Assembly (NCBI GenBank): GCA_965243025.1
Contig: CBDETY010000003.1
Location: 5,440,001-5,504,000 of the forward strand
From: Candidatus Latescibacterota bacterium
GTDB lineage: Bacteria > Latescibacterota > UBA2968 > UBA8231
Direction: 5' to 3'
DNA: 64,000 nucleotides
Position numbers and translations under genes: made by a program. How positions within the stretch are numbered: position 1 is the first letter of the stretch; every line of letters starts with the position of its first letter. The notes below the pieces were generated by a model, which saw only the letters and a list, made by a program, of their open reading frames with translations, ran no database searches and was not told the origin of the DNA. This document shows positions 6,598 to 35,704 of the stretch, in pieces.

Positions 6598-7382
6598 ACG
6601 GGGATCTCAGCGAGTGGGACATCATTCCCCCCGAGCTGTGGATCACCGAGCAGGACGTCGTCAACAGCTCCGACAGGGTGACGGCCTACACCGGAGACAT
6701 CGATGTCTCCTCCATGTCCTTCCGCTGGGTGCTCAGCTGGAACGACGAGACCAATCGCATCTACTTCGGCTACGAGCGCTTCGACGACAAGCACTGGGGC
6801 GGCGGCGAGCACTACGAGGGCGCCATGGACGCCGACCATAGCGGCGGTACCTTCTGGGATATCGAAGGTATGACCGACGAGGAGGCCCAGCGCCAGCGCG
6901 GTCGCCATGCCCAGATTTTTGGCTGGCATTTCGACTGGGAGGAGAGATGGTCGAACAACTGGATGACGCAGGCCGACTGGTACGACGACCCGCTGTATAC
7001 CGACCACGTCCACCGCGTCGAGGGCGTTCCTGGATCGACTGACGAGACCCGCCTCTTCGCCGAGTGGTACCAGATCTACTGGGACGACTTCAACTGGGAA
7101 GATCCTGAGGGAAGCATCGTGCACGAATTCGAAGACGATCAGATCATCGGCTACAGTGCTCACGTGTACGATAAGGACGATGCTTACGAAGACGAAAACG
7201 GCGAAACCAGAGAAGACTGCAACTGCCACTCGCGCTGGACCCTCAGCCCGAACGTCGAGTCGTTCGGCAATGCCGACTACCTCGCCGACTTCCTCATTCT
7301 GCCGATCGACGACAGCGCCAATTTCGTCACGGCAGTCGAAGAAGACAGCTGGGGCAGAATCAAGGCTTCGCTGGCCAAATAA
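6598..7382 (+). pseudogene. 5'-truncated copy of the 21503-22420 secreted protein gene
   Basis: Identical from GDLSEW onward; RBS, start codon and signal peptide are missing. Confidence 0.85.
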
Positions 7383-7405
7383 TCAGGCTGGCACAGCCGA
7401 TCATG

Positions 7406-7442
7406 AGGGATGGATCCGATTACCGGGTCCATCCCTTTTTTT
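7406..7442 (+). terminator. Rho-independent terminator
   Basis: AGGGATGGATCCG-attac-CGGGTCCATCCCT followed by a T run. Confidence 0.85.
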
Positions 7443-7500
7443 CGTACATTTCGCGGTATCTCGGTGTCTACGCGAAGCACGAACGGAATCAGGTATTACT

Positions 7501-8291
7501 ATGGCTAAACTGACGATGGGGGCGTTCCTAACTAATAGCCTCATGGCTGGCTGGCTACAGTCAGGTCGACGCACTGACCATTTACCGCCTCGGCGGAGAG
7601 GATCTCCCCGCGCCGGAAAAGGCAGAAGAGGTCGGTGTCGACTTCGTTCAGCTGATGTGGGAGGACCTCGACGAGGACCAGTTCGGTAGCGCTCACCAGC
7701 TCGAATTGACGGGATTTGCCGAGCCGGTGCGACTCGACCCCACCGTCAACCTCACGCCGCTTCTCAGGGACCGGGGCGGCGTGGTCAAGTTGAACAACTC
7801 GTACTCCTTCCTCGATCACCCCTCACTGGACTTTCTGTTCGACGGCGACTACGACACCGCCTTCTCCGGGCTGCGGGGGGACCAGAGCGGGAGCGCCTTC
7901 GTCAAATCGATCTGGTTCGGCCTGGGCGGTCTCTTTCCCATCAGCCGGGTGGTGATTCAACCGACAACCGACCACCACCACGACCGGTTCATTCCCGAAT
8001 TCACGTTGGGAACCAACGACGGGGACGAAAAGGAAGAAGGGGACCCGCGAAGGGAGTTACTGGTTTCGCGGCCGCTTCGTCGACTTCGAGATCCGGTTTC
8101 ACCGCAAGGAAAACACCGAATCCGTCCTCGACCTGCACCTGCCCGACGAGCCGATCGAGAACATGTATTTTCTGGCACCGTCGGCAAACTGGGAGATCGC
8201 CGAGCTCGAGATCTACGGCGACGGCTTTGCCTCGCGGGCAAACTACATCTCCAACATCGTCGATCTCGGTGGGCGCTCGAGCCTGGGCAAT
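7501..8291 (+). pseudogene. N-terminal fragment of a secreted protein with two +1 frameshifts, 3'-truncated
   Basis: Removing one base near 7531 gives signal peptide MAKLTMGAFLLIASWLAGYSQVDA|LTIYRLGG; removing one near 8031 restores WEIAELEIYGDGF...YISNIVDLG. Confidence 0.7.
7552..7814 (+). repeat. 263 bp direct repeat, copy 1 (copy 2 at 18317-18579)
   Basis: Identical by eye; offset 10765. Confidence 0.95.
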
Positions 8292-8404
8292 CGACAACTC
8301 CGGTGACATCACAGCGATGCTGATCATTAACGGACGTTCGCTCAACAATGAATTCGCGAGAGTCAGAGATTGATGAGTTCCATTCCAGATGAGCTTCGAG
8401 ATGA
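8292..8404 (+). repeat. Diverged inverted copy of ~22762-22876 (serine hydrolase end / adenylyltransferase start)
   Basis: First ~50 nt match the reverse complement exactly, then scattered substitutions and indels. Confidence 0.85.
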
Positions 8405-8667
8405 TCCTGAGTAAAAGCCAGGCGGCAACCGCAAGAGCAGTCCCAACCAGATAGCCACCAGACAGATTCGAGATGGGATCTAGCAACATCGGCCTATCAC
8501 CCCCACCCGCCACAATACATAGTGCATAGTCCGGTTAAATGGATAGCCCCAACCTGTAGTATCCGAGGCGCGGTGCGCCATTGTAGAAATATCCGATTCC
8601 CGTCCAACATCTCCCACCATTGGCCATCCTTTAAGAGGCGGGTTGTCGCGCAGGGCCATGCGGGCAG

Positions 8668-8962
8668 ACGTATAGGACGTACAAAGGCCCTTTTTTCCTG
8701 AAAGCGCTGGAAGTGATCACGGCTGTCCATATCTCTCACAGGACAGGGGCACAGGTGCCGCTGCCGCTGGCCGAGGGGCTGGATCTGCTAGAAATCCGCC
8801 CGACGGGAGAGTGATCCCGCCGTCCGGAGGGCGTGCTCTCCAACACATCGCTTCGGCTGTCTGGCACGGCAGTTGCAATGTCCGTATGGTAACCGCACGG
8901 GCTGGGTATGCCATGACGACACGATCCATCTGGTGTCTCGCCGGGCTCCTGCCATCAACCCC
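8668..8962 (-). mobile_element. 295 bp non-coding element B, copy 1; IS91/ISCR oriIS-like end
   Basis: Near-identical to 11805-12099 (2 mismatches seen); minus strand ends AAAAAAGGGCCTTTGTACGTCCTATACG, resembling ISCR oriIS ends. Confidence 0.7.
8862..8877 (+). promoter_or_regulatory. Sigma-54 promoter consensus within element B
   Basis: TGGCACGGCAGTTGCA = TGGCACG-N4-TTGCW; also at 11999-12014. Confidence 0.55.
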
Positions 8963-9658
8963 ATGGGATGGGGCGGCATCGCTAAGACCATCGGCGCCTG
9001 GTATCCGCCGCACCGACACGGCACGGTCATGGGGTTCGTAAGCATCAATTTTCAGTTCGGCGGTGTGGCGGCAGCGCTGTTTGCGGGCTTCCTGGTTGCA
9101 CAGGGCGTCGGCTGGACCTGGATCACCAAGTTTCTGGTCGACATCGGCATGGTCAACGTGGATGCTCAGATCAGGACCGCCGTGATCGCGGCACTCGGTG
9201 TGCTCGGGACAGTGCTATTAGGTTGGTATACGGATAAGTACGCAAAAGACGGAGACCGGGCGCGGGCCATGTGGATTATGCTGTCGGGACTGGGATTTTG
9301 CCTTCTGGCGGTCGCATTTTTGGCTAACGCGGGAGAGCAGGCGCATATTACGATCGTGATATTGCTGGGGTTGAGCAGCTTCTGTCTGCTGGGACCTTAT
9401 TCCATGAGTTCCGGATGTATAACCCTCGATATTTCCGGGTCCGAAGGGGCCGGCAGTTGCACCGGCATGATCGACGGTGTCGGATACTTCGGCGCCTCCC
9501 TGGCCACCATCGGCGCGGGTGTGATCTCCGACAGCATGGGCTGGAGCCAGGTGTTTGTTATTCTCGCAATATTAGCATTCATAGCCACCGGTGCTGCTTA
9601 TCTGATGAGCCGGGATTACAGGAAAGAATTGGTTCATTTAAAAACAAACGACCAGTGA
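8963..9658 (+). pseudogene. MFS transporter fragment (GlpT/UhpT-like)
   Basis: WYP..RHG.VMG and G..DG.GY.G motifs with hydrophobic helices; 5' end replaced by element B; central region appears deleted near VGWTWITKF. Confidence 0.7.
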
Positions 9659-9677
9659 GCACTAAGCGTCTTCAACA

Positions 9678-11105
9678 ATGAATCAATGGAGAAATAGTTT
9701 GTCTAAACTGGATCGTCGCACATTTTTGCGTCATACGGTGATAGCAGCTGGAGCGGTAGCGTTACAGGGACTGGTAACGCGACAGGCGCTGGCAAGAATT
9801 AATACATATCAGAATCTCACGGCATCGTTAGGGGACGGCGGCTACGGACCGCTCTATCCGATGCATTCTGCCAATACGAATGAACTATGTCTGGAACTGC
9901 CTCAGGGATTCCGGTATACCGTCCTGGGTAAAACCGGCTCGATCATGTCCGACGGCAACCCTACGCCCCGGGCCCATGATGGGATGGCTGCGTTTTCGGA
10001 CGGAGACACCATCCGGCTTGTGAGAAATCATGAGATCAACAATCAGCGCGGCAAACCGGGCGTTGCGATCGGTGGCGATGCGCCGGGCTATGATCTCTCC
10101 GCAGGCGCTGGAACGACGACGCTGGTGATCGATCCTGAAAGCCGGGATCTTATCAAAGATTTCGTGAGCCTGAACGGTTCTCTTCACAATTGCGCCGGCG
10201 GCCCTACACCATGGGGAACCTGGATTACGTGCGAAGAGACGACCATGGGCAGAACGATTGTCATAAATAATCGAAATAAAACCCATTACGGCGGATTTAA
10301 CGAAGATCATGGATATTGTCTCGAAGTCTCCGCGCTGGAGAATGAGCCGGTAAAAACACAACCGTTGCGGGAAATGGGGCGGTTCATCCACGAAGCCATC
10401 GCAGTCGATCCCGCGACCAGCATAGTCTATGAGACCGAGGATAATTCGAGGGCGGCGGGTTTTTATCGCTATATCCCTAACGAATCACAAAAACTCGCGG
10501 CTGGTGGCCGGTTGCAGATGCTGGCGGTGAAGGATCAACCTGCCTACGATACCAGAGTAAACCAGACCATGGGCAACGTCCTGCCGGTCACATGGGTGGA
10601 CATCGATAACCCGGATCCTTTGACTGCGAGCACCGATTCATCTGCGGTATATAACCAGGGATACGAAAAGGGCGGCGCGAACTTCAGTCGCCTGGAGGGA
10701 TGCTGGTACAGCAACGGCAGCATCTTCTTTACCTCAACCAGCGGCGGAGATGAAAAACTCGGTCAGATATGGGAATACCGTCCAACGACTGACGGCAACG
10801 GCACGCTGAAGCTGGTTTTCGAGTCGCCGGCGGCGGCGTTGCTGCAATCCCCGGATACTATCTGCGTCAGCCCAAATGGCGGCCTGGTCATCTGTGAAGA
10901 CAGTCCGCCTGAGGTCTACATCCGCGGCCTCACCGTCGAAGGCCGTATATTCGACCTGGCCAAGGATATAGCCGGTATCGAAGCGCGAGGCGAATTTGCC
11001 GGCGCCACGTTCAGCCCCGACGGCCAGACGCTTTTCGTGAATATGCAGCGCCCCGGTATCACCTATGCTATCTGGGGACCGTGGTATAAAGGCGCGCTAC
11101 TGTAA
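9678..11105 (+). CDS. phoX: PhoX-family (DUF839) alkaline phosphatase, Tat-exported
   Basis: DRRTFL twin-arginine signal; NCAGGPTPWGTWITCEE, MGRFIHEA, EFAGATFSPDGQTLFVN. Confidence 0.85.
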   Translation: MNQWRNSLSKLDRRTFLRHTVIAAGAVALQGLVTRQALARINTYQNLTASLGDGGYGPLYPMHSANTNELCLELPQGFRYTVLGKTGSIMSDGNPTPRAHDGMAAFSDGDTIRLVRNHEINNQRGKPGVAIGGDAPGYDLSAGAGTTTLVIDPESRDLIKDFVSLNGSLHNCAGGPTPWGTWITCEETTMGRTIVINNRNKTHYGGFNEDHGYCLEVSALENEPVKTQPLREMGRFIHEAIAVDPATSIVYETEDNSRAAGFYRYIPNESQKLAAGGRLQMLAVKDQPAYDTRVNQTMGNVLPVTWVDIDNPDPLTASTDSSAVYNQGYEKGGANFSRLEGCWYSNGSIFFTSTSGGDEKLGQIWEYRPTTDGNGTLKLVFESPAAALLQSPDTICVSPNGGLVICEDSPPEVYIRGLTVEGRIFDLAKDIAGIEARGEFAGATFSPDGQTLFVNMQRPGITYAIWGPWYKGALL

Positions 11106-11176
11106 TGTGGAATGGGGAGTGCGGAACCACGAAGTGAATGCAAGCACTCCGCACTCCGCATTCTGAAAGGAATATC

Positions 11177-11804
11177 ATGACAACAGATCATCTCCCCTTA
11201 CGGCGTGTTGATCACATCAAATTCTTTGTCGGCAATGCCCGGCAGTCGGCTTATTTCTACCGCAATGCGTTCGGATTTGATGTGATCGGGTATGGAGGGC
11301 TGGAAACTGGAATGAAGAAGGAGGCGGGGTATGTACTCAAGCAGGGTAATATCACGTTTGTCCTTGTTTCACCGCTTCAGAGCGATCATCCGGACAGTGA
11401 ACGGTTGATGCTGCACGGCGACGGTGTTAAGGATGTGGCGCTGGAGGTGGATGATGTTGCAGCAGCATATGAGGCCACCGTCAGCCGCGGTGCGGTTGGA
11501 ATAACCGAACCGACGGTGATAGAGAACGAGGAGGGCATCTACGAGTTCGCCACGATCCGGACGTACGGCGATACCACGCATACGTTCGTGAACCACGACC
11601 GGTACGAAGGCGTATTAGCGCCCGGCTACCGGCCGATCGACCCGGCGCGGTACAGGGAGGACACGCGGAGACCAGTGGGACTGAGGGCGATTGATCACAT
11701 CGTCGGCAATGTGGAACTGGGTAAGATGGATGAGTGGGTGCATTTCTATGAGCATGTGATGGGGTTTACGCAGCTTATTCATTTCGACGACAACGACATC
11801 AGGA
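11177..11804 (+). pseudogene. hppD: 4-hydroxyphenylpyruvate dioxygenase, 3'-truncated
   Basis: HGDGVKDVALEV, IRTYGDTTHTFV, IDHIVGNVELGKM; cut at FDDNDI by element B. Confidence 0.9.
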
Positions 11805-12099
11805 ACGTATAGGACGTACAAAGGCCCTTTTTTCCTGAAAGCGCTGGAAGTGATCACGGCTGTCCATATCTCTCACAAGACAGGGGCACAGGTGCCGCTG
11901 CCGCTGGCCGAGGGGCTGGATCTGCTAGAAATCCGCTCGACGGGAGAGTGATCCCGCCGTCCGGAGGGCGTGCTCTCCAACACATCGCTTCGGCTGTCTG
12001 GCACGGCAGTTGCAATGTCCGTATGGTAACCGCACGGGCTGGGTATGCCATGACGACACGATCCATCTGGTGTCTCGCCGGGCTCCTGCCATCAACCCC
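11805..12099 (-). mobile_element. 295 bp element B, copy 2
   Basis: Direct repeat of 8668-8962; its ori end abuts the hppD breakpoint. Confidence 0.7.
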
Positions 12100-12132
12100 C
12101 AGATCGATATAGACTACCGATAAACGACTCTC

Positions 12133-12999
12133 ATGCCGGAAGACGACGGCACCACCGCCCACCCGTGGACGGCTGAAGAGATCCAGGCACGACTCGGCAC
12201 CTCGACCATCGTATTCGAGCGCGACCGGCTCTTGCGATCCGAGGACCTCGCGATGATCGCCGAGAGGGGCATCGAGTACGTCGAACTGTGCGGTCTCGGA
12301 AATCCGGGCCACATGGACATCGACGATCCCAAATACAACGCATGGCTCCGTTCGGAGTGCGAGAAGCAGGGCCTGTCGATCGTGGTGACCCACTGTCCCG
12401 GTTTCCTGTTCAACTCCGACGAAAAGGAGAACCGACGGAAGGCTGTCGCGCAGGGTGTGCAGACGGCGAAGATCTCGGAGGAGTTGGGCGCAGGTATCAT
12501 GGTTTGCCACTTCCGGACCGAGGAGCCCTCGGAGAGAAGCATCCACGAGATGCTCGACCAGCTCCAGGACTGCTCCATCAAGCTCACCATCGAGAACGGT
12601 CGTGACCTGTCAGACTTCACCGCCTTCGTGGACAAGGTGGGTTCCGACCGCTTGGGCATGGTCGTCGACATCGGCCACACGCGGGACGAGGACGAGGTGA
12701 ATCCCTTCACCAAGGCTGAGCGCGCCCGCGAGACTCTGGCGCAGTGTGGAGACCGTCTTCTGCATCTGCACCTTCACGACTGGGTCGACCACGACCACTA
12801 TTCCCCGCTGGACGGCGAGATACACTGGCCCGGCGTGTTCGATGCCCTCAGGGATATCGACTACAAGGGCTACTATATGTTCGAAGCGCTGTACGTACCG
12901 CACAAACGAGGCGAGGAGCTCGAGCCCGACTATGTCCTCGATAAGGTCGCTGCCTTCCCAAATGATTTCGTCGAGCGCTACACTCACCTGGCGAATTGA
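12133..12999 (+). CDS. Sugar phosphate isomerase/epimerase (xylose isomerase-like TIM barrel)
   Basis: IEN, DIGH, HLHD, DH and FE metal-ligand pattern. Confidence 0.85.
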   Translation: MPEDDGTTAHPWTAEEIQARLGTSTIVFERDRLLRSEDLAMIAERGIEYVELCGLGNPGHMDIDDPKYNAWLRSECEKQGLSIVVTHCPGFLFNSDEKENRRKAVAQGVQTAKISEELGAGIMVCHFRTEEPSERSIHEMLDQLQDCSIKLTIENGRDLSDFTAFVDKVGSDRLGMVVDIGHTRDEDEVNPFTKAERARETLAQCGDRLLHLHLHDWVDHDHYSPLDGEIHWPGVFDALRDIDYKGYYMFEALYVPHKRGEELEPDYVLDKVAAFPNDFVERYTHLAN

Positions 13000-13152
13000 A
13001 CCGGATGGATGGTCGATCGTCCGCGGGAGTTTGGATTTTTCGACTTCGACCGGGAAGCCTACATTGAGGAGTAACTGGCGCGTCAATAGCTGGAAATTTG
13101 GAGAATACTAATTGTTGGCAGTCGAACAATGGATCGCGGCCAAAACGGGTCA

Positions 13153-13770
13153 ATGACTGACGGCGCTTTGAAGATAACCGAGTCACAGCGGCAGCAGTTC
13201 GATGAAGACGGCTTCTTCCTGGTGGAAGAGGCCCTGGCCCCGGATGAGGTCGATGAACTCATCGAGCTCGTCGACGTGCTGTACGAGAAGTATCGACGTG
13301 AGCGCGACCTCGGTCCCCACAAGCGGTTTCAGATGCGCAACGTTGTAGCGGCCCATCCCCTGTTTCGGCGCCTCATAGACCATCCGGCCATTCTACCGCT
13401 TGTCGTCGACACCATCGGCTTCAACATCCAGCTTCGCACCTCGCACATGGACGTTCGCCCGCCGCAGGAGCTCGAGGACGGCGAAGCCGCCCTGGGGACG
13501 CCCGACAGCTTCTTCCCCTGGCATGCGGACGCCCCAGACTACGGCTGGGCACTGGTCGATGGCGTCATCCCCTTCATGGAGCTGAAGGTGGGCTACTACC
13601 TGACCGATCTCACTGCCCACAACAGCGGCGCCATCTGCGTGGTGCGCGGCAGCCACCGCCAGTCACCGTGGATGGAGAGCGACGGCGAGCGCGTGGCCGA
13701 TCCCGAGCGCATCGTCGAGGTCAACGTGAAGCCGGGAACGGCCATGATCTGGCACACCCAGCTCTACCAC
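13153..13770 (+). pseudogene. PhyH-family dioxygenase, 3'-truncated
   Basis: FDEDGF, WHAD, GSH, LYH; ends at the element A junction. Confidence 0.8.
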
Positions 13771-13840
13771 GCCGGAGGTCTCGACCTCACGTCCCAACCG
13801 ATATAGACTACCAAGAATGGCCGCTTATCAGTCCTATCCG
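13771..13840 (+). mobile_element. 70 bp oriIS-end module A, copy 1
   Basis: Identical to the terminal 70 bp downstream of the ISCR transposase remnant (19375-19444); ends TCCTATCCG. Confidence 0.85.
13781..13809 (+). promoter_or_regulatory. Outward-facing sigma-70-like promoter in module A
   Basis: TCGACC-N17-TAGACT; also at 19385-19413(+), 29730-29758(-) and 30972-31000(-). Confidence 0.55.
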
Positions 13841-14489
13841 TAAGCAGCGGCTGTTTGCCGCGACGGAAGACCTGCTGGACGACCGTCTCCCGCTCGTCGT
13901 AATCAAAATTCTCAGGCAGGGGCGGGAGCGCGTCGGGAGAAAACCCTTGCGCTTCCGGGCCGGGGATCGCTTTGAACTCGTGGGTGTGCTCGTACTCGCA
14001 GATGTCGTGGGGGTTGACGAGGCCGATCTGGAGATAGAACGGCTTCGACGAATTACGGCTGTCGAGGAAGTCGATCAGAGCGTGGGTGGAGACGCGATCG
14101 TAGTATTCCGCTCCTCCCGCAGCGATGTCCCTGTTGCCCGTGTAGAGGTTTTGGAAGCTGTCTCTCATCGACCGACCGCGTATGTGCCACTTCCCACAGT
14201 GGACGGCGTCGTAGCCGTTCCCGTTCAGGATCTGTCCCAGATCGGGAATGTCCTCGTGCATCAGGCCGGGGTTGAAGCAGACGCCGTTCTCCGATGTGTA
14301 CCGTCCGGTCATCCAACTGGCCCGTGAGGCTGAGCAGACCGGATCGGCACAATAGCTCCGCATGAAGGAGGTCCCGTTGTGGTGCAGGCGATCCATGTGG
14401 GGCGTGCGGACGTGCGGATTGCCGTACGCCGAGACGACATTCCACGTCTGCTGGTCGGTGTTGATGAAGAGGATGTTCGGCCGGTCCAT
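13841..14489 (-). pseudogene. Sulfatase, 3'-truncated
   Basis: RPNILFINTDQQ, CSASRASWMTG (CxAxR), GKWH, NPHD; cut by the ori end of module A. Confidence 0.85.
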
Positions 14490-15253
14490 CACGTCCCTCG
14501 CTCGCAGAGGACGTAGGTGGAGAGGATCGTGGAAACGAGGGCTACGTCGCCGGACTCGGTCAGCCACCAGTACGAGGGGGGCAGGCCTTCGCCGGAAAGC
14601 ACGTGTCCAGTCAGCTTGTGTGATGCGAAGGTCCACGTCTCGAGGGGATGGATCCGGCAGCCGAGTTTGAGCGTTTCGAGGTCTTCGAGGATGGAGAATC
14701 CATCACCCCCGCCGGTCAGTGTCGGGAGGACGTCGAGGAGGGCCCAGATGGTCGTCAGCGGCGTGCCGGGCGGCACCTCACCTGCTTCGAACGAGAGTCC
14801 ACGCGAGGTGGTGAGCGAGATCGTCGCCCCCTCGATCGATCCCTTCCAGTCGACTTCGCTGTACACGCCGTCGGCGACGTTATGTGCCAGAATCCGCCAG
14901 GGGCTGCGGAGTGGACGGAGCGGTTCGTCGCCGCAGGTGAAGTCGAGGGTGAGGCGCTCGCCGCTCGGCGCGTTGTCGTGGATGACGCGATAACGCCATC
15001 CGGATTCGGCCAGTGTTCGCTCGACGAGGAGTGATCCGATGCTGAACTGGGCGCTGTGCGTCGCGTCCTCATTGTAACCACACCAGAAGTTGGGGAGGAT
15101 CGTGTAGCTGTGCGTCTTGGCGGATGCGTTTGGATCGACAGATGGGGAGGAGAGGGCTTCGGATAAAGGCTGTGAGAGCTCGGAGCGGACGTCCCAGTGA
15201 TCCGTCTGGGCCGTGTAGTCGACGCTCCAGTGCAGGTCGCTCACGTCGCGCAT
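14489..15253 (-). CDS. Hypothetical protein (start uncertain)
   Basis: 254 aa ORF whose stop overlaps the sulfatase start. Confidence 0.55.
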   Translation of the reverse strand: MRDVSDLHWSVDYTAQTDHWDVRSELSQPLSEALSSPSVDPNASAKTHSYTILPNFWCGYNEDATHSAQFSIGSLLVERTLAESGWRYRVIHDNAPSGERLTLDFTCGDEPLRPLRSPWRILAHNVADGVYSEVDWKGSIEGATISLTTSRGLSFEAGEVPPGTPLTTIWALLDVLPTLTGGGDGFSILEDLETLKLGCRIHPLETWTFASHKLTGHVLSGEGLPPSYWWLTESGDVALVSTILSTYVLCERGT

Positions 15254-15551
15254 CTCAGATTGAGGCGACTGTCAGAAAGAGAAATCGAAAAGGTGTAGGA
15301 CCGACGTGAAATCGGCTCTCCCGTAGAATGCAATAGCACCCATATCTGCTGAGTGTACTCCACCCGGCAAGATGATGCGAGATCGGTAGAAATGGCGAGC
15401 AGCCAACTATTCTGAACGACCATTCGTCATCTGCACAGATCGTGTTGACGTGGTTCTGGCGGCGCCATAGTATACCGAGCGGATACGGATAGCTCGCTGA
15501 GAGACTGTGCTCGTGAGTTCCTCGTGCATTTCAAGCAAGCGGAGGGAAACC

Positions 15552-18212
15552 ATGGCAGACGCCCTGAGAAGCGTCAACACATTGTTGAGAAGGCCACCGT
15601 CGAGGTCTGCAACAGCGCTGATGCCGCTCGCAATCGTCGGTGTATTGGTACTGTCTCCCCTTGTCACGCCAGCCGCCGCTCGAACGGAGGCATTTGAAGT
15701 CGGTGATGCCAACAAAGACCAGCTGCCAACCGGCAAGGAGGCTGACGGCATACTCGGCGACTTCGTGATGCGGAATGACCTGATCGAAGCGACTATCTCA
15801 GGCGATCTGCCAAGACGCAAGGCGAATATTGCCGCGTTTTACGCTGCCATCACACCGGGCTGCGTGTATGATCTCTCCGTACGAGGTTCCAGAAACGACC
15901 AACTCACCCTGTTTTCCCCGTCTTTCCAGCACGGGGATGTCAATTATGTCCGAATCCTGGATGGTGGGAAGTCGGGCAAAGCGAGCATTGAGACGGTCGT
16001 ATCTGCGGCCAGGAACAGTGGTCTCTACAAGCGCCATCTCTATCACCTCCAGGATGGCTGGCGAGGCCTTCTCATCGAGACGACCCTGCGCAACGAAGCC
16101 GATTCGACCCACCGAGTCGGCACGGAGGACCGGCTCGAAGATCAGGCCGATGCCCGCAACGTGGGTGAGAATACGGTCATCTACATTACTGATCCGGCGG
16201 ACAAGGCGGGGTACGCATTCGGTTGGGTCGGTGAAGCGCCGGCCGATACACTGGAGCTGCTGCCCGGTCAGGAGGTCACCTACAAGCGCTTTCTGGCTGT
16301 CGGCACATCTCCCGCAGAGGCATACGGACTGGTGGTCCAGCGCCAGGGCGAATTCGGCACTGTTTCGGGTGTGATTGTCGGTCCCAGCGGGAAAGGCGTA
16401 CCGACGGCACACATCGAGATAACAAGCGACGACGATACACTGGCAACCTATCCCGATGCTGACGGCAGGTTCAATTTTGCACTGCGACCGGGATCGTACG
16501 ATTTCCTAGTGACGGACGTGGGACGAGCAGAGGTACGTCAATCGTTGGCGCTAGTCTCCGGTGAGGTCCGATCGCTGAGTTTTGAGATGGACCGGGCCTC
16601 CACCGTCGCCCTGGACATTCGCGATGAGGACAGCGGGAGCATCCCCTGTAAGGTCCAATTCATTGGCATTGAGGGCAGCGAGTCACCCGATCTGGGACCC
16701 AGAACAAGGGCGCACGGGTGTCTCGACCAGTATCACTCGGAGACTGGTCAGTTCGAAGTGCAGGTTCCGCCGGGAGATTACCGCGTTGTGGTAACCCGCG
16801 GCATCGAGTTCGGCCATCTCGAGAAGGAGATACAACTGCGTCCGGGTCGTACCGAGAAAATTCGGGGTGTACTCCGCCGGCTCGTGGACACAGAGGGTTG
16901 GGTCAGTACCGACTTCCACAACCACTCGACGCCCAGCGGCGACAATGTGACCAACTCCCGCGACCGCGTAATCAACCTGGCGGCAGAGCACATAGAATTC
17001 GCGCCAACAACCGAGCACAATCGGCTCTACGATTGGCAGCCGTTCATCGACGAGCTGGGTCTGGCCGACGAGGTTGTGACGATCCCTGGCCTCGAGTTGA
17101 CCGTGAAGGGTCCCCACCTCAACGCCTTCCCATTTGTTCCGGACCCGTACGCTCAGGATGGGGGAGCTCCGCAACGACAGCTGAGGTATCTCTGGCCAGC
17201 TGCCCCGAGATACACCGATCCTCGGATCAACGCCATCCTGCTGCGCGATTTTCAGCGTTCGTCGGAAGACCTCATGCCGGAGCGATGGGTCCACCTCAAC
17301 CACCCGAACATGTCGTTGAATTTTGTCGACCGGGACAAGGACGGTCGAGAAGATGGCGGCTACCGCGGGTTGGCTGCGTTGATTGACGGGTCCGAGTTGT
17401 GTGGGTTTTGGACCTGTACGGAGAGGGGTGAGGACATACTGGCTCGTTCACCGTGGCGGATCGTGACTCGAGACGAGGAGGAGTTAGTGCGGCATCGTCG
17501 CGAGTTCATCTGGCTGCAGTTGCTCAATCGCGGTCATCGTTATACCGCCATCGCAGTATCCGACGCACATACGATCCACGGTAACGGCGTCGGCGGCTGG
17601 AGAACATACATTACTAGCAGCAGCGATCGACCGGCCGATATCGACTGGAAAGAGGTCGTAGGCAATGCCAAAGCCGGTCAGGCTCTGATCACCAACGGTC
17701 CCTTCCTCAGGGTCGAGACGGTCGACGGTACGTTGCCGGGAGGCAGTGCGCGAGCGCAGGGATCAATCGCACTGCGTATCGAGGTACAGTGCACTGACTG
17801 GATCGACATCGACCGCGTCCAGATCCTCGTCAACGGCCGGCAGCAGCCGGATCTCAACTTCACGAAGGAATCTCATCGCGACTGGTTCAGCGATGGCGTG
17901 GTGAAATTCAGCCGAGTCATCGACGTACCCCTAAGTCAGGACAGTCATATAATCATTGCCGCTATAGGCGAAAACTCGGATCTGTCGGTTGGGTACGGCA
18001 GCAGTTGGCAGGCACGGATGAAGCCGGTGGCCTACACGAATCCGATCTGGGTCGATGTGGACGGAGGCGGATTCGTGCCTAACGGGGATGATCTCGGTTG
18101 GGACTTGCCCGTAATGGAGAAGGCTCCATCTTGGCGCGGTCGTCCCAGTAAGACGGTGGAGGAAGTACGCAAGATGCTTCTAGCCGCCGGGCTGGACGAT
18201 TCTGGCGTCTAG
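15552..18212 (+). CDS. Secreted CehA/McbA-type PHP metallohydrolase with carboxypeptidase-regulatory-like domains
   Basis: Signal peptide; DFHNHS, TEHN, HLNAFP, NHP, SDAH, TNGP, YTNPIWVD. Confidence 0.8.
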   Translation: MADALRSVNTLLRRPPSRSATALMPLAIVGVLVLSPLVTPAAARTEAFEVGDANKDQLPTGKEADGILGDFVMRNDLIEATISGDLPRRKANIAAFYAAITPGCVYDLSVRGSRNDQLTLFSPSFQHGDVNYVRILDGGKSGKASIETVVSAARNSGLYKRHLYHLQDGWRGLLIETTLRNEADSTHRVGTEDRLEDQADARNVGENTVIYITDPADKAGYAFGWVGEAPADTLELLPGQEVTYKRFLAVGTSPAEAYGLVVQRQGEFGTVSGVIVGPSGKGVPTAHIEITSDDDTLATYPDADGRFNFALRPGSYDFLVTDVGRAEVRQSLALVSGEVRSLSFEMDRASTVALDIRDEDSGSIPCKVQFIGIEGSESPDLGPRTRAHGCLDQYHSETGQFEVQVPPGDYRVVVTRGIEFGHLEKEIQLRPGRTEKIRGVLRRLVDTEGWVSTDFHNHSTPSGDNVTNSRDRVINLAAEHIEFAPTTEHNRLYDWQPFIDELGLADEVVTIPGLELTVKGPHLNAFPFVPDPYAQDGGAPQRQLRYLWPAAPRYTDPRINAILLRDFQRSSEDLMPERWVHLNHPNMSLNFVDRDKDGREDGGYRGLAALIDGSELCGFWTCTERGEDILARSPWRIVTRDEEELVRHRREFIWLQLLNRGHRYTAIAVSDAHTIHGNGVGGWRTYITSSSDRPADIDWKEVVGNAKAGQALITNGPFLRVETVDGTLPGGSARAQGSIALRIEVQCTDWIDIDRVQILVNGRQQPDLNFTKESHRDWFSDGVVKFSRVIDVPLSQDSHIIIAAIGENSDLSVGYGSSWQARMKPVAYTNPIWVDVDGGGFVPNGDDLGWDLPVMEKAPSWRGRPSKTVEEVRKMLLAAGLDDSGV

Positions 18213-18316
18213 CAGCAACGCGCGCAATCACCGCGGATAGGGGAACCCTCCTCCCCATGCAAGATCACTTGTTGCTCTTGCCCACGACTACCCAAATGAG
18301 CCACTGCACTCACATT

Positions 18317-18579
18317 TGGCTACAGTCAGGTCGACGCACTGACCATTTACCGCCTCGGCGGAGAGGATCTCCCCGCGCCGGAAAAGGCAGAAGAGGTCGG
18401 TGTCGACTTCGTTCAGCTGATGTGGGAGGACCTCGACGAGGACCAGTTCGGTAGCGCTCACCAGCTCGAATTGACGGGATTTGCCGAGCCGGTGCGACTC
18501 GACCCCACCGTCAACCTCACGCCGCTTCTCAGGGACCGGGGCGGCGTGGTCAAGTTGAACAACTCGTACTCCTTCCTCG
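18317..18579 (+). repeat. 263 bp direct repeat, copy 2
   Basis: Identical to 7552-7814. Confidence 0.95.
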
Positions 18580-18607
18580 GGAGCGCGCTGGCCAACGTCT
18601 TCGACGG

Positions 18608-19444: not shown

Positions 19445-19446
19445 TC

Positions 19447-22420: not shown

Positions 22421-22525
22421 TCAGGCTGGCACAGCCGATCATGAGGGATGGATCCGATTACCGGGTCCATCCCTTTTTTTCGTACATTTCGCGGTATCTC
22501 GGTGTCTACGCGAAGCACGAACGGA
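21636..22525 (+). repeat. 890 bp direct repeat, copy 2
   Basis: Identical to 6598-7487. Confidence 0.95.
22444..22480 (+). terminator. Rho-independent terminator
   Basis: Same hairpin and T run as 7406-7442. Confidence 0.85.
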
Positions 22526-24406: not shown

Positions 24407-24511
24407 GGATGCATCTCCGGTCTGTAGCTAGTTATTGAGCGCCGAATTGTCGCCTTCTAGCCAGGACCTGGATGTTGGTCGACGAATCGGCCCTCACTCA
24501 CCCGTCTTCAT

Positions 24512-24892
24512 TTGCCTTCAGACCGGGGACGAACACGTGAGGAGGGAGAACATGTTCGACAGAAGGAAATCAACATAGTCCTTTCTCTTCAGCCTCAGGT
24601 GATCATTGGCGATTTTAACGTTCGACCTGGTGAACCAGTCTATCAGAGGATGAAAAAAATGGGATATATAGATGCAGCGGTTAAGGTGGGAAAAGATAAA
24701 ACTCCTACAACTGGCAACGTTCGTGTTGATTACGTATGGATCCAGAGTGCAGTTAACTTGGAATTGATAGACTATACTGTGCTTGGTCAGAGGGAGTTCA
24801 ATCACACGATTGGAGATGAAATTCATATCTTAAGCGATCATTTACCGGTTAAAGTAACGTTTAGCACGGAAAAGGGAAATACCCAAATATGA
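24512..24892 (+). pseudogene. Endonuclease/exonuclease/phosphatase family, C-terminal fragment
   Basis: GDFN, RVDYVW, SDHLPV; N-terminus missing; AT-rich. Confidence 0.75.
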
Positions 24893-25014
24893 AATTTGAT
24901 GCTATTTTCTTTGATTCTGGTGGAACTCTGTTTGATTTTTCAAATCCATTGTTAAGAAGGAATCGGTACTATGAGAAACAGAAAAAGATGTCCCGCCCAT
25001 CCAGGACAGTGTAA
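24889..25014 (+). pseudogene. HAD hydrolase N-terminal stub
   Basis: MKFDAIFFDSGGTLFD (motif I) overlapping the upstream stop; terminates after 41 codons. Confidence 0.55.
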
Positions 25015-25072
25015 ATTTGGATGACTCCCTTAAGACTATGAGGTTGATGGAGAAAATAGGGGAGATCTCTAG

Positions 25073-26629: not shown

Positions 26630-26850
26630 CTAGTGTTTAGTAGAGGATCGTCTTATTAAGAGAATTAGCCCAGATTAAGACAAGTATATATTAGTAACGG
26701 ACCACCAAAGTGTGGGGTAAATCGAGGAAAGGAACAAAAAACATCCCCAACCGTAGTTCAGGCACCCCTGCCTAAACGCTTCGGCAAGGGCCGAAGCTAC
26801 GAGTGGTTCGTTGTAAGATCATGTTTGGAAGAGCACTTGAGGAGGTTCGG

Positions 26851-29660: not shown

Positions 29661-29698
29661 TTCTAGAGACTCCTGAAAGGGTGACACCCGGTGTGGAA

Positions 29699-29770
29699 CG
29701 GATAGGACTGATAAGCGGCCATTCTTGGTAGTCTATATCGGTTGGGACGTGAGGTCGAGACCTCCGGCTC
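29699..29770 (-). mobile_element. 72 bp oriIS-end module A, copy 3
   Basis: Reverse complement of 19373-19444. Confidence 0.85.
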
Positions 29771-29836
29771 AACCCGCGTAGCGGGTTGGCGAAGTCCAAG
29801 CGGCGAATGCCGCGCTGCATTAACCCGCTGTTAGAG
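29771..29836 (+). other. Possible 3' half of an integron attC site
   Basis: Palindrome AACCCGCGTAGCGGGTT, hairpin GCGGC-GAAT-GCCGC, then GTTAGAG (GTTRRR core) and a switch to AT-rich DNA; left half absent. Confidence 0.4.
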
Positions 29837-29928
29837 GTGCGTTGGATTTTTGCTCTCCAAACTCAAATACTAAGAGCCTATTCGGAGATTTCTATACTCG
29901 AAACTCATCTGAATACGGGTGTTCAGAA

Positions 29929-30879
29929 TCAATGGGGGGCAGTCGGATAGGTCCCGTCCAGAGCCCGCTCCCGATCGCGGCGCACCCTGGCCAGATAATC
30001 GCACATCGGCTCGATCTCAAACTCCGCGATTAACTCATCGGTGCTCTTATGCGGCAAGTGTGAGCGCAGCGTCAACAGACACTCGTCACCGAGATGCTCC
30101 GCCGTTGCAGCGTCCGGACCGTAGCGTTCAAACAAGGACCGCACGCGCTGGATGTTGCCGTCGTGATGCACCACCCGCATATCGAGATCGAGGTCGGCAC
30201 TGATCAGCGGCGCCATGCCGGTCTCATCGCTGGTTCGGCGCGGCACACTGCGAATGAGCCGCCCGGCCGGATCAATAAACGAGCTGCCGCCGGCAAATAC
30301 CCCCGCCATATAAAAACCAAACTCAATAGCCCAGCGGCTCATCATCCGTACGCCCGTCCACATGGATGACCAGACGACCAGCTCGGGGCGGTTAGCGCAG
30401 GTTGCATGTCCTACTTCCCAGTAGTTGATATCAAAGCAGATGGTCAAAGCAATGCGGCCAAAGTCGGTTTCAAAAACAGGGGTTTCCGTGCCGGGGATAA
30501 TGCCCAGGTCCAGCTCTGGATGGGTCGGCATGTTTTTGTGATGCACGCCAACCACTTGGCCCGCACGGTCGATGAGGATGGAACTGTTGCGGCGCTTGTC
30601 ACCTTCCATAATTGCCTGCGGAATTACAACATACACCGAATGGGTGCGGGCGGCAGCAGCCATGGCCGTAACCGTGGGGCCGTCGAGTTCTTCAAAGACC
30701 CATGCGTCGGGCGCGCCCAGATAAGAGCAGATCTCCGGAAAGACAACGAGGTCGGCCTTTTGTGAGGCGGCCTGGGTTATGTGCATCCCCATCTTGTCAA
30801 GGGTTTTGGATAGCCGGTCAGGGTCATCGCCTGCAACCGGGCTGTAGCTGACCAGAGAAACAGTCGCGTTCCGATTCAT
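29929..30879 (-). CDS. Carbon-nitrogen hydrolase (nitrilase superfamily)
   Basis: E-K-C triad in FPE, HHK, ICFD. Confidence 0.85.
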   Translation of the reverse strand: MNRNATVSLVSYSPVAGDDPDRLSKTLDKMGMHITQAASQKADLVVFPEICSYLGAPDAWVFEELDGPTVTAMAAAARTHSVYVVIPQAIMEGDKRRNSSILIDRAGQVVGVHHKNMPTHPELDLGIIPGTETPVFETDFGRIALTICFDINYWEVGHATCANRPELVVWSSMWTGVRMMSRWAIEFGFYMAGVFAGGSSFIDPAGRLIRSVPRRTSDETGMAPLISADLDLDMRVVHHDGNIQRVRSLFERYGPDAATAEHLGDECLLTLRSHLPHKSTDELIAEFEIEPMCDYLARVRRDRERALDGTYPTAPH

Positions 30880-30940
30880 TATGCTTCCCGTTTTATTCCC
30901 ATTACTCCTAACGTTTTGCCGCTTTGCGAATCGCTCTGAG

Positions 30941-31138
30941 CGTATAGGACTGATAAGCGGCCATTCTTGGTAGTCTATATCGGTTGGGACGTGAGGTCGA
31001 GACCTCCGGCTCGACGGGGATGGATGCTGCGCGAGGCTCACCGGCCGATGGTGAGCATGGATTGCGGGCGGGGTTGGGTTGAGCGACAAATTCTTGGGAG
31101 TTTTCAGGCCCGAAAGGACGATTCAGGCGTACGGATCC
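30941..31138 (-). mobile_element. 198 bp oriIS-end module A, copy 4
   Basis: Reverse complement of 19247-19444 with one terminal variant (TCCTATACG). Confidence 0.85.
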
Positions 31139-32097: not shown

Positions 32098-32099
32098 GA

Positions 32100-33115: not shown

Positions 33116-33194
33116 AACCGGCAACTCGCCGTTTTGATCCGGCAGGGTGCCGGATCTACAGGGATCACGAAGACAAGACAGCGTGGATCGCGGG

Positions 33195-34058
33195 ATGGAA
33201 AACGTGACAGAGCTTGCGATAAGTCCCGACGCTCGCAGCTTGAGCGAAGAGGAAGTCGATCAATACAAAGAGCTAGGCTACGTCAAGAACCTGCCCGTGT
33301 TTTCCCCGGAGAGTGTCCCGGAACTGCAGTCCCGGTTCATGGACCTGATCGATGGAATTCCCGACAACGTGGACATCTACAGGGTCAACAACTGGCACAA
33401 GGCCAATCGCTGGATCTACGAACTGTCCCGGACGCCGGCCATCCTGGATTGCGTGGAGGCTGTGCTGGGACCCGATTTCCACCTGTGGGCGGGCGCCATG
33501 TTCATCAAGCGTCCGCATGACGGCAAGGTTGTTCCCTTCCACCAGGACGCCGGCTACTGGCCGCTGGAGCCCAGGGTCAACGCAACGGCCTGGCTGGCAG
33601 TCTTCGATACGGATTCTGAAAATGGCTGCATGCGCTTCGTACCGGGCAGTCATCGACAGGGCCCCATCGCCCATGAGGAACTCCCCGATTCGCCCGACTG
33701 GTCAAAAACGTCCGCCGAGGAGCAGGCCAACAGCAAGTACGTGCTCTGGCAACAGGTGGACCCGAACAGTTTCACGGAAGACCAGGTCATGGACATGGAC
33801 CTGAAGGCCGGAGAGATGTCACTGCATGATGACGACCTGATCCACGGATCCAAGGCCAACGAATCTGACCGCATGCGCGCCGGTATCGTGTTTCGCTACA
33901 TACCCGCCGAAGTGAAATGCGATTTGAGTGTCTGGCCCACCTTTGAAGTCTACCCGTGTCGGGGAACAGACCGCTTCGATCACAACCCGGTGGGCAAGGT
34001 CCCGGTGGGATACAGCTACCCGACAACGTTTAATCAACATTCAAGAGAATTTGAATGA
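33195..34058 (+). CDS. PhyH-family Fe(II)/2OG dioxygenase
   Basis: FHQDAGYW, NGCM..VPGSH, HGS..N.S...R. Confidence 0.9.
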   Translation: MENVTELAISPDARSLSEEEVDQYKELGYVKNLPVFSPESVPELQSRFMDLIDGIPDNVDIYRVNNWHKANRWIYELSRTPAILDCVEAVLGPDFHLWAGAMFIKRPHDGKVVPFHQDAGYWPLEPRVNATAWLAVFDTDSENGCMRFVPGSHRQGPIAHEELPDSPDWSKTSAEEQANSKYVLWQQVDPNSFTEDQVMDMDLKAGEMSLHDDDLIHGSKANESDRMRAGIVFRYIPAEVKCDLSVWPTFEVYPCRGTDRFDHNPVGKVPVGYSYPTTFNQHSREFE

Positions 34059-34182
34059 AGAGGAGTGCTGGCGTATTGTCGTTTCAGATTACCAATGCTC
34101 CATCACTCCAGTAATGCAACGACAGCGCGGCAAGTATTCGAATCATTTACGGCAGTCTCAGAATTCAAACAGGAACAGACAT

Positions 34183-35037
34183 ATGAAGAACCCGAAACTC
34201 GCCTGTGCCGACTTCACCTTCCCGCTCGTGTCGCATGATGAGGCGCTCGACATCATCGCCCTGCTCGGAATAAAGGGTGTGGACATCGGGCTCTTTGCCG
34301 GACGGTCGCACGTTCAACCGAGAGACATCTTTCCAAATATCCCCGCGGCCGCGCGGCGCATGAAGAAGAAACTGTCTGACCGGGGACTCAAGTTCGCCGA
34401 CATCTTCCTGATCCCGGCGCCGTCCGTGGCCGACATCGCACCGAACGACCCCAACCCCAGGGTCCGCCGCCGCTTCCGCGATATGTTCCAGCGCACACTG
34501 GAGTTTGTCGCCCGTTGCGATGCGCCGCATATGACAGGAGTGCCCGGCGTGACCTTCGATTCGGAGTCGCAGGGTGATTCCCTCAAGCGTGCCGCCGAAG
34601 AACTGACGTGGTGTGTCGAGCGGGCCAAGGAAGCCAAGGTGACCTTCTCCGTCGAGGCCCACATGTGGTCGGTCGCCCCCAACCCCAGGCTGGCCGCGAA
34701 GCTCGTCGCGATGACGCCGGGGCTGACGCTCACGCTGGATTACGGCCACTACACGACACAGGGCATGCCCGACCGCAGGATCGAGCCGCTCATGGAACAC
34801 GCGAGCCATTTCCACGCGCGCGCCACGTGCAAGGGGCTGTTGCAGACGACACTGAAGCAGAACACGGTCGATTACCGCCGGGTCGTTCGAACCATGAAGA
34901 AATGCAACTATCGCGGCTACATCGGGCTGGAATACGTCCGCATGGATGCCGATATAGTCCCGGACGTGGACAACCTGGCCGAGACCGTTCTCCTGCGCGA
35001 CCTGATAACCGGGGCGTGGAAGGGGCGGCAACGTTGA
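34183..35037 (+). CDS. Sugar phosphate isomerase/epimerase
   Basis: VEAH, LDYGH, HFHAR, YRGYIGLEY. Confidence 0.85.
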   Translation: MKNPKLACADFTFPLVSHDEALDIIALLGIKGVDIGLFAGRSHVQPRDIFPNIPAAARRMKKKLSDRGLKFADIFLIPAPSVADIAPNDPNPRVRRRFRDMFQRTLEFVARCDAPHMTGVPGVTFDSESQGDSLKRAAEELTWCVERAKEAKVTFSVEAHMWSVAPNPRLAAKLVAMTPGLTLTLDYGHYTTQGMPDRRIEPLMEHASHFHARATCKGLLQTTLKQNTVDYRRVVRTMKKCNYRGYIGLEYVRMDADIVPDVDNLAETVLLRDLITGAWKGRQR

Positions 35038-35219
35038 ACACGGCAGGCACCGCGGCGGTTGCGAATCCCGGCGCAACGGCTGAATGCTGCACGCAGGACA
35101 AACGCCACGAAATATCATGAATGCGGCGGCTCCATGCGCATCGTCGCCTGTGATGGTCGCCTCCCCGGTCGTTTCGCTACCACGCGAGAGTACAGAGAAC
35201 GGGATTCACCCCGGAGTCC

Positions 35220-35704
35220 ATGCGGGAGGAGGTCGCGGCGGCGGTTGATGACTTTCCGGGCCTGCGGCGAACGCAATGTCCACTACGTCGATGGCTGCGA
35301 CTTCCCGGCCGGGAGCACGCTCATCTTCTTCCCGACGAGCACCACCCGACGGTTACAAGGTTATGGTCCGTAACTTCCTCCGCGAGGTGGCCGGCAGAAT
35401 ACTCGTCGGCGGACCGGTCGCAACGGAGCAGCGGACTTTGCAGGAGGTCTCCAGATGGCTGTTTTCGAAGGCGCTGGCCCTGAGACCTGACTACGTCGAG
35501 GCCCAGATCGGGATCGGCGTAACCCACTTCAAGCTCGGCCGCTTCGAGGAGGCCGCGGCGGCATACGAACGAGCACTCGAGCTGGATCCGCGCAACCATC
35601 GCGTCCATCTCTACCTGGGGGATGTGTACGGAAAACTCGGCAGGGCCGATGACAGCAGGAGGCATTTCGATCGGGCGCGCAAGCTCGGGCAAGAGCAGCT
35701 GTAA
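35220..35704 (+). pseudogene. Frameshifted SGNH-hydrolase C-terminal remnant joined to TPR repeats
   Basis: NVHYVDG...LLPD..HP...GY..M across shifted frames, followed by two TPR-like repeats. Confidence 0.5.

Follow-up and report, generated by a model that had tools for sequence, protein, structure and literature searches.

A gene mosaic punctuated by six short ends

Some 25-29 kb of the chromosome of a Latescibacterota bacterium consist of a patchwork of whole and broken genes, which we analyzed within a stretch of 64,000 nucleotides (the window; positions 5,440,001 to 5,504,000 of contig CBDETY010000003.1, assembly GCA_965243025.1). This patchwork is a real accessory mosaic in the chromosome, in which solo oriIS-side ends of two elements, here termed A and B, form the main seams. 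In the sections on transposition of the IS91 and IS801 studies, oriIS is the end at which insertion sequences (IS) of the IS91 family begin rolling-circle transposition, and the sole end needed for one-ended transposition (PMC13181058, PMC3189936). The host is found in sponge and marine samples, and its 6.8-Mb genome, of which the window occupies part of a 6.78-Mb contig, is a metagenome-type assembly with an estimated completeness of 96% and contamination of 6%. The fraction of G+C (GC) in 1-kb steps is 0.48-0.63 inside the region as against 0.62-0.71 outside, bearing out the shifts in composition suspected from the sequence alone. Nucleotide synteny with two genomes of the same genus (87-88% identity) starts only at position 51699, and the preceding positions 1-51698 are without it, which makes the variable region much larger than the 29 kb flagged at first. 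The window contains nothing from Rfam at gathering thresholds and nothing from ARAGORN, so that the island is not marked by a tRNA or any known RNA.

When the window and the entire 6.8-Mb genome were compared with themselves, four copies of A and two of B came to light, at the places where an earlier reading based on the sequence alone (the sequence-only reading) had seen six rolling-circle origin ends. Copies of each end are 96-100% identical to one another and are therefore not chance matches. All six close on the terminus TCCTAT(A/C)CG and, as that reading held, they make up three pairs (B1/B2, A1/A2 and A3/A4; Table 1), each in one orientation and each bracketing cargo. Within every pair, nothing separates the far end of the cargo from the ori terminus that follows, and the modules, 3137, 5604 and 1243 bp long, are each bounded by two identical nick-type sites. 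The A end occurs in the genome at these four places only and the B end at these two, apart from a 72% partial match at C3:612809; a scan of the genome_contigs set with a degenerate A-end pattern gave 0 matches.

Unrelated DNA adjoins both sides of all six ends, so none of them is a simple insertion. A1 and A3, and likewise B1 and B2, have a common discrete inner edge yet different DNA upstream of it. The final 59-69 nt of A are also present, at 100% identity and with new flanks, on two metagenome contigs; aligned with the four window copies, these are identical up to ...CAGTCCTAT(C/A)CG(T/C), and unrelated sequence follows. The fixed terminus with variable flanks that was sought in genome and metagenome is accordingly seen in one A terminus that adjoins six different outer flanks, four of them in the window and the other two on the metagenome contigs. 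A simple insertion of the kind made by miniature inverted-repeat transposable elements was considered for the window and rejected, since no end has contiguous flanks and the metagenome X1 (see below) is without B plus its cargo rather than B alone.

Two further observations concern the surroundings of A. One of the metagenome flanks is a CRISPR array: at L045:1537-1833 the A ori terminus stands 14 nt after the last of four repeats (period 60-61 nt), which places the element end inside or at the edge of the array. In the window, the A-like relic (Table 1) is situated at the inner edge of B2 and points towards the AP_endonuc_2 gene.

Assignment of the ends to the IS91 family

The open reading frame (ORF) at 18608-19228 matches positions 88-178 of 183 of the Pfam Y2_Tnp profile (PF04986), which together with an N-terminal zinc-binding part typifies the HUH/Y2-type transposases of the IS91 family, and equals the C-terminal part, amino acids (aa) 265-480, of an intact 480-aa transposase in the same-genus genome G001 (L007:709-2151). 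The A2 terminus comes 217 bp past the stop codon of this remnant; in both the G001 element and an 80% identical element in G016, a homologous end follows the transposase gene downstream at an equal distance. The genus also has intact 480-aa transposases whose elements end in ...CCTATAC. The commonest element in G001, G002, G019 and G020, of which full-length copies measure about 1.85 kb, ends in ...AAAAAGG(T/G)GCCTCATTTT(A/T)CCTATAC. The B end (...AAAAAAGGGCCTTTGTACGTCCTATAC) is a variant of this end, intermediate variants exist, and a 97% match to its final 34 nt is present in both G001 and G016. The left end of full-length relatives lies ~100-125 nt 5' of the transposase start and is different from the right end, which lies ~227 bp after the stop, and in the commonest type the left ends vary by subfamily. 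Judged by their position and sequence, A and B are the oriIS-side ends of two IS91-family elements, as the sequence-only reading had supposed. The elements agree with IS91 in that their two ends differ, the oriIS lies 3' of the transposase gene and terminal inverted repeats are absent.

The target of IS91 is a tetranucleotide of the CTTG/GTTC type, with T at position 2 and without target duplication. If the window elements are assumed to end in ...CCTAT(A/C)C, the words that follow are GTAA, GTCA, GTTC, GCTC, GTCT, GTTC, GTCG and GTTT, with T second in seven of these eight A/B flank words and GTTC present twice; where the window has GTAA, the native sulfatase gene reads TGAA. The subterminal sequence in which a palindrome was sought is AAAGGGCCTTT in B and AAGGGCCCTT in the relatives, and the fold z-scores are -1.69 for B and -2.22 for L028.

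At the side opposite to oriIS, IS91 has terIS, a GC-rich stem-loop, and full copies in the relatives carry a ter in the form of a CCTCCCC...GGGGAGG stem-loop. No ter-like sequence is present in the window, which means that its ends are remnants with an ori alone, rather than whole members of the family. ISCR elements combine an IS91-like transposase gene with an oriIS, usually without a recognisable terIS, and have varied genes next to them. In the window a transposase gene accompanies none of five ends, and the sixth, A2, has only the remnant. On these sequence features the window ends are to be classed as ori-side derivatives, which do not qualify as whole IS91 or ISCR elements.

Two further sites were noted. 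A 57-nt, 88% nucleotide match of the remnant at 50587-50643 was not confirmed at the protein level. A second cluster of IS91 remnants, at G000:C3:3428202-3440536 in the host genome (G000), comprises a ter end still attached to the first 47 codons, as well as two pieces of transposase and a pair of ori ends on one strand (3433210 and 3440511), interleaved with IS5-like copies.

Gene breakpoints, re-used blocks and cargo

Three ori termini sit at gene breakpoints, an observation of the sequence-only reading that our mapping upholds. First, hppD stops at 11804 against the B2 terminus after covering positions 2-191 of 353 of TIGR01263, and no partner of this half was found in the genome. Second, the sulfatase copy ends at 13842, at the A1 terminus, whereas the twin at C3:2.63 Mb, 95.6% identical, continues as a 521-aa ORF. 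Third, the 984-aa-family paralog here called big3 begins at 19447, at the A2 terminus, at about aa 481 (of 1054). Counted by profile or paralog coverage, 11 genes are truncated (X copy 1, Y, MFS, hppD, PhyH, sulfatase, the Y' piece, the transposase, big3, the beta-lactamase-fold gene and a fragment at 35462-35692), fewer than the 'more than 15' initially claimed.

The re-used blocks reported earlier were likewise recovered: the two copies of X match over 897 bp and those of Y over 263 bp (Table 1), and 4729-6592 resembles 19447-21307 at 87%. The joint 6592/6594 comes after the tail of this 87%-identical paralog. The order within segment 18317-22528 is that of a circularly permuted big3-X'-Y'-transposase remnant-oriA: the opening lies in the 61-bp spacer between X and Y, and the ori terminus is joined to truncated big3, the usual order being big-X-Y.

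Table 1. Features of the mosaic from left to right (window positions unless a genome or contig is named), followed by three arrays in related genomes
Feature	Position	Strand	Remarks
Native paralog genes	up to 6592		
Gene X copy 1	6594-7490	+	without first ~44 codons; 99.8% copy of 21632-22528
Gene Y fragment	7552-8291	+	aa 66-307 of a 684-aa paralog ORF; 61-bp spacer from X
End B1	8668-8962	-	ori-type terminus 8668 (left), inner edge 8962
B1 module cargo	8963-11804	+	MFS C-terminal half, PhoX, hppD N-terminal part; GC ~0.55
End B2	11805-12099	-	99% identical to B1; terminus 11805 adjoins hppD break
A-like ori relic	12104-12127	+	24 nt of inner part (GATATAGACTACC...); terminal ~20 nt missing
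AP_endonuc_2 gene and 3'-truncated PhyH-family gene	12133-13770	+	12133-12999 and 13129-13770
End A1	13771-13841	+	final 71 nt of A end
Sulfatase cut at A1 terminus, and complete 254-aa gene	13842-15304	-	95.6% copy of C3:2633460-2634922
CehA/McbA-type metallohydrolase block	15305-18316	+	901-aa gene at 15507-18212
Y' piece	18317-18579	+	100% identical to 7552-7814; fused to transposase remnant
IS91-family (Y2_Tnp) transposase remnant	18580-19228	+	aa 265-480 of 480; HUH-motif part absent
End A2	19229/19247-19445	+	217-bp region 3' of transposase stop codon, ending in ori terminus
big3, then complete X'	19447-22528	+	big3 19447-21174 (5'-truncated, 984-aa family); X' 21455-22420
Beta-lactamase-fold, D-aminopeptidase-like fragment	23238-24152	-	Pfam positions 75-318 of 329
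Intact IS5/IS1182-like IS (DUF772 + DDE_Tnp_1)	25068-26637	-	unrelated to ori ends
AP_endonuc_2 and purple acid phosphatase genes	between IS5-type IS and A3		
End A3	29698-29773	-	71-76 nt; terminus 29698
A3 module cargo	29774-30940	-	154-bp hairpin-bearing spacer; complete nitrilase 29929-30887
End A4	30941-31138	-	198 nt; terminus 30941 (TCCTATACGC)
One-strand array, 17 ends	G020:C1:1736113-1803789		
One-strand array, 12 ends	G020:C1:3718756-3760097		
One-strand array, 10 ends	G004:C1:2492750-2546712		

The cargo of the B1 module consists of a GlpT/PgtP-type MFS gene (to 9658), PhoX (9678-11105) and the N-terminal 54% of hppD (11138-11804). Block 15305-18316 is 94-96% identical to G002, as against 87-88% for core sequence. 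The IS5/IS1182-like IS has 10 copies in the genome at 97-100% identity and is evidently currently active here, unlike the IS91 remnants. The ~1000-aa protein family to which big3 belongs (window ~600-6456 and 19447-21174; C3:3.696-3.703 Mb) has dozens of partial copies in the genome and no Pfam or NCBIfam match; its genes stand in groups of three, the other two members being X (~300 aa) and Y (~650 aa). Just past the Y truncation (8292-8405) and downstream of X' (22761-22876) are the two arms, 92% identical, of a 116-bp inverted repeat.

The nitrilase of the A3 module is 91.7% identical to a native gene at C3:6556475-6557435, and the homology covers the coding sequence only. That it stops at the ends of the coding sequence, and that the 154-bp spacer after the stop codon contains an imperfect hairpin with GTTGAGC at the edge, could be taken to mean that this unit, and perhaps others, had been moved by an integron integrase via attC, with the A ends as bystanders. 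We consider this extremely improbable: the hairpin energy of the spacer is ordinary (z -0.64), no integron integrase scores above the cut-off in the genome (best TIGR02249 match 95 bits against a required 265), and the unit is the single one of its kind, bracketed by A ends instead of attC sites. The label 'attC-like' given to the spacer from sequence alone is therefore not supported.

Metagenome contigs: continuity and polymorphism at the joints

Logan contigs from four runs (X1, X2, X15 and X18) were compared with window positions 6500-26499, a joint being taken as bridged only if a contig has 31 letters on both of its sides; all results of this comparison are among the matches listed. We left out weak joints whose shorter side has 20-25 letters (6913/7075, 8263/21047, 13788/19598, 16744/16895, 20049/20160 and 21951/22113), a record that goes back, which is the 87% paralog, and X2 bins of low or zero depth. 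Joint 15304/5 is bridged in X1, X15 and X18, 18316/7 in X2, and 21307/8 and 21631/2 in X1, as are both sides of a B end (flank|B and B|12100). The contigs of X15 and X18 run from repeat edge to repeat edge as the window predicts (8933-11834, 12070-13800 and 15212-18346); they stop 30 letters into each repeat, one letter under the bridging rule, and were not counted for the repeat-edge joints. As X15 and X18 contain 96-97% of the sampled words, they perhaps come from the source sample and count as non-independent.

X1, by contrast, is an independent sponge metagenome from another study. A 1618-nt contig in it joins 8314-8667 directly to 11805-13038 and thereby skips 3137 bp, exactly one unit of B plus cargo, and the PhoX cargo is held on another X1 contig. 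It follows that the B-plus-cargo module varies from sample to sample as a block, being either there or missing.

These contigs bear on the possibility that the assembler joined segments of different strains or genomes at short repeats, which would fit the metagenome-type assembly with its 6% estimated contamination, the other arrangement at B in X1, and the several repeat-edge joints that are unbridged among the matches listed. Against such a chimera stand the 6.78-Mb contig, in which the repeats are only 71-300 bp long, the bridged joints, the X15/X18 contigs that reach from edge to edge as predicted, and the same architecture in single-contig genomes of relatives. We accordingly hold an assembly artifact to be very improbable.

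Arrays of ends in related genomes

A 26-nt degenerate end pattern was searched in related genomes with at most two mismatches; the reversed control gave 0 matches in every genome. At this threshold the host genome has 6 matches, G001 22, G002 16, G016 6 and G020 53. Neighbouring ends (within 25 kb on one contig) share their strand in 65 of 66 pairs, a count whose members are non-independent in that it includes kin and tandem duplicates. With at most one mismatch, 9 of 61 genomes have matches, all in the window's family (8 of 36 others plus the host genome), as against 0 of 24 genomes from three other families; most of the nine are assemblies of few contigs. At this stricter threshold G004 has 10 matches on one strand within 54 kb.

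The ends of the relatives form head-to-tail arrays of 5 to 17 (Table 1), and this architecture also occurs in single-contig genomes. Among 40 units in four arrays, the ori end is kept in every one: two hold a near-full-length IS and 38 an ori-proximal remnant only (145-1317 bp), few ter-proximal pieces having survived. Between the ends lie 0.4-9 kb of mostly unique DNA, with whole genes and also gene fragments that abut the termini, and some short ends have a common discrete inner edge and different upstream DNA. In G001, a 15-kb stretch has five same-strand ends, among them one pair of 213-bp ends that encloses 1.95 kb of cargo and one of ~375-bp ends that encloses 1.76 kb. The G004 and G020 arrays occupy one locus (flank 90.6% identical), where some modules are common at 97-99% and blocks of modules differ. 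Some units in the G020 and G001 arrays are plain tandem duplicates. A replichore-wide strand bias was considered as the cause of the common strand and, judged from the strands of the clusters, seems unlikely: the strand in G020 switches four times between clusters, unlike a simple two-arm pattern.

How the mosaic may have formed

With modest confidence we favour the reading that each module is cargo plus an ori end, and that the modules were stacked by one-ended rolling-circle transposition together with recombination at the ends, and later scrambled. Rolling-circle transposition would start at the ori nick and stop at an arbitrary or ter-like point, often within a gene; the one-ended product would close into a circle, in which the far end of the cargo meets the ori terminus; and the circle would be taken up next to or inside an ori copy already in place, through either transposase or homologous recombination. 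With each further round, modules would be stacked head to tail, and later deletions, duplications and the IS5-type insertion would have scrambled the remainder. A transposase acting in trans is presumed to have made and moved the modules, and the circles and the order of events are likewise what we infer. The permuted segment 18317-22528 could be a one-ended product from oriA that stopped inside big3, as it would appear after closure of the circle. In favour of the reading count the A2 terminus behind the Y2_Tnp remnant with its counterparts in relatives, the six flanks of one terminus, the unrelated DNA around every end, the X1 contig, the permuted segment, the one-strand arrays with their ori-proximal remnants, and the precedents of IS801 and IS91 described below. 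The cargo does so too: it includes diverged copies of distant native loci, the sulfatase (95.6%) and the nitrilase (91.7%), the block close to G002 and the unpartnered half of hppD.

Several results weigh against this reading. The genome has no intact IS91-family transposase, although one was sought as the cognate enzyme; there are two partial Y2_Tnp matches and scattered fragments, in line with the earlier description of the ends as non-autonomous. The search of the window for terIS with the left ends of the relatives found nothing. At the A1 joint the CCGT that follows TCCTAT is absent from the native sulfatase gene, and the hairpins predicted for the A end do not outdo those of shuffled sequence (z -0.01). 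Joints 8962/3, 11804/5, 13770/1, 13841/2, 18579/80 and 19445/6 are unbridged among the matches listed. At least nine joints have no ori motif (6592/4, 7490/1, 7551/2, 7814/5, 8291/2, 15304/5, 18316/7, 18579/80 and 22528/9), so other recombination shaped much of the mosaic. Homologous recombination between direct repeats alone could give both the X1 haplotype and the differences in modules among the relatives. Finally, in its retrospective part, the IS801 study attributes most genomic IS801 fragments to reorganisation and not to one-ended transposition (PMC3189936).

Several of these points would be expected if the locus were a plain IS graveyard, in which ordinary IS91 insertions were followed by deletions, illegitimate joins and recombination between leftover ends, and the DNA between the ends was resident or separately acquired, with no capture by rolling-circle read-through. 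The lack of an intact transposase and of terIS, the many joints without an ori motif, the X1 form that recombination between the 295-bp repeats would yield, the tandem duplications inside the G020 and G001 arrays, and the preference for reorganisation in the IS801 analysis, as far as that retrospective part goes (PMC3189936), all fit such a history. It sits less well with the unrelated DNA on both sides of six out of six ends, where the other halves of hppD and the cut sulfatase are not nearby, or with short ends that have common discrete inner edges but different neighbours. The retention of the ori end in all 40 array units, with few ter-proximal pieces left, and the near-perfect agreement of strand within clusters, combined with switching between them, also speak against it. 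On balance we regard it as unlikely, if with a substantial minority of the weight.

Of the claim that DNA was repeatedly captured and stacked here by a transposase acting in trans, one part thus stands: the unit is present or absent as a block, and same-orientation stacks recur in relatives. That a transposase moved the cargo is a supposition: one to act in trans is missing from the genome, homologous recombination between direct repeats would explain the polymorphism equally well, and at the joints without an ori motif other recombination was at work.

A further-reaching version, to which we give little credence, is that in this family of Latescibacterota an IS91 lineage has become a cassette-like HUH system, in which a short ori core (34-170 nt) ends each module. 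A transposase in trans would start at one ori nick and stop at the next, as two-origin rolling-circle replicons do, and the one-module circle would re-enter any resident ori, giving rise to one-directional, integron-like arrays of whole genes and gene fragments that turn over between strains.

Relationship to known systems

Evidence for the carriage of neighbouring DNA by IS91-type elements comes mostly from resistance islands of clinical bacteria. In the portion of the Helraiser paper that touches on it, the evidence for such carriage in nature is still called circumstantial (PMC4778049). The present locus is useful in this respect for its uncultured, sponge-associated host, its ordinary metabolic cargo, the six flanks of one terminus, the block polymorphism and the arrays of the relatives. 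If stacking is driven by a transposase, it would offer a natural system for studying the assembly of accessory gene arrays and the shuffling of gene fragments by rolling-circle elements, and would account for part of these symbionts' variable genome; should it reflect only recombination among dead ends, the locus is an ordinary graveyard of IS.

Integrons are characterized by an intI integrase, attI and attC-bounded cassettes. Like integron arrays, the arrays described here are made of one-directional modules, each ending in a short structured site, and their content varies at a conserved locus (G004 versus G020); unlike them, they lack a tyrosine integrase and attC; an HUH-type ori end serves as their site, and many of the modules comprise more than one gene or gene fragment.

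Helitrons have a Rep-helicase protein, eukaryotic hosts and 5'-TC...CTRR-3' ends, and insert at AT. Capture by ISCR and the analogy between IS91 and Helitrons are textbook matter. The sequence-only reading called the locus a bacterial analogue of Helitron gene-fragment shuffling; the underlying idea, capture by IS91/ISCR as a bacterial parallel to that by Helitrons, was already in print. Traits to which the window may be likened appear in the parts of the Helraiser study that deal with mechanism, namely rolling-circle HUH chemistry with one essential initiating end, end bypass or premature ends that give new termini and pick up gene fragments, insertions beside truncated copies, and circles with head-to-tail joints (PMC4778049). 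The bacterial host and the Y2_Tnp-type transposase set the window apart, and the likeness is one of mechanism only.

For ISCR elements, among them ISCR1 and ISCR2 with their truncated remnants in resistance islands, the proposed route is by circles plus homologous recombination. The window resembles them in that truncated ori-side remnants punctuate a mosaic beside varied captured genes, with no terIS, a likeness that rests on architecture, named ISCRs having been compared by description only. It differs in its cargo, which is metabolic (phosphatases, sulfatase, nitrilase and dioxygenase fragments) instead of clinical resistance genes, in its uncultured environmental phylum, and in its much shorter ends (71-295 bp) without a transposase gene.

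An environmental parallel is Sphingobium herbicidovorans MH, where the sections on catabolic clusters describe their shaping by IS91 copies, circles and tandem duplications, including the 11-kb cargo-bearing circle cIS91sdpA (PMC5737581). Non-resistance cargo, repeated IS91 sequences and tandem duplications are common to both; that strain has full-length IS91 with transposase genes and an observed circle, as far as those sections report (PMC5737581), whereas the window has ori-side remnants only, known from sequence.

Among the closest known systems are IS801, IS91 and IS1294 themselves, for which one-ended transposition, a target word beside oriIS and single-stranded circles are established according to the account of these elements used here (PMC13181058). 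In that account the last ~82 bp of IS91 suffice, and one-ended transposition reaches about 50% with the transposase expressed alone (PMC13181058). The portion of the IS801 study on its transposition products gives right-end miniature fragments of 229, 360 and 679 nt as 26% of events, and mentions that 290-1431 nt of upstream DNA are sometimes carried by one-ended transposition (PMC3189936). The window elements are similar in having an ori end ~200 bp 3' of a gene for a Y2/HUH-type transposase, of which the window retains a C-terminal remnant, and no inverted repeats, a fixed ori end with a variable other end, ori-only miniatures with discrete inner edges and, if the assumed end ...CCTAT(A/C)C is right, T at the second position in seven of the eight flank words. 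They are dissimilar in having no active copy in the genome and end sequences other than those described, and in the head-to-tail stacking of the ends, which have kilobases of unrelated cargo in between. Our search of the open-access literature met no description of arrays of 5-17 such ends, and no report that combines one-directional, ori-only stacks holding kilobases of unrelated cargo, long arrays with turnover of modules at one locus, and a Latescibacterota host. The underlying biology, that of the IS801 miniature fragments and of ISCR capture, is known; here it is met in a new host and in a stacked form.

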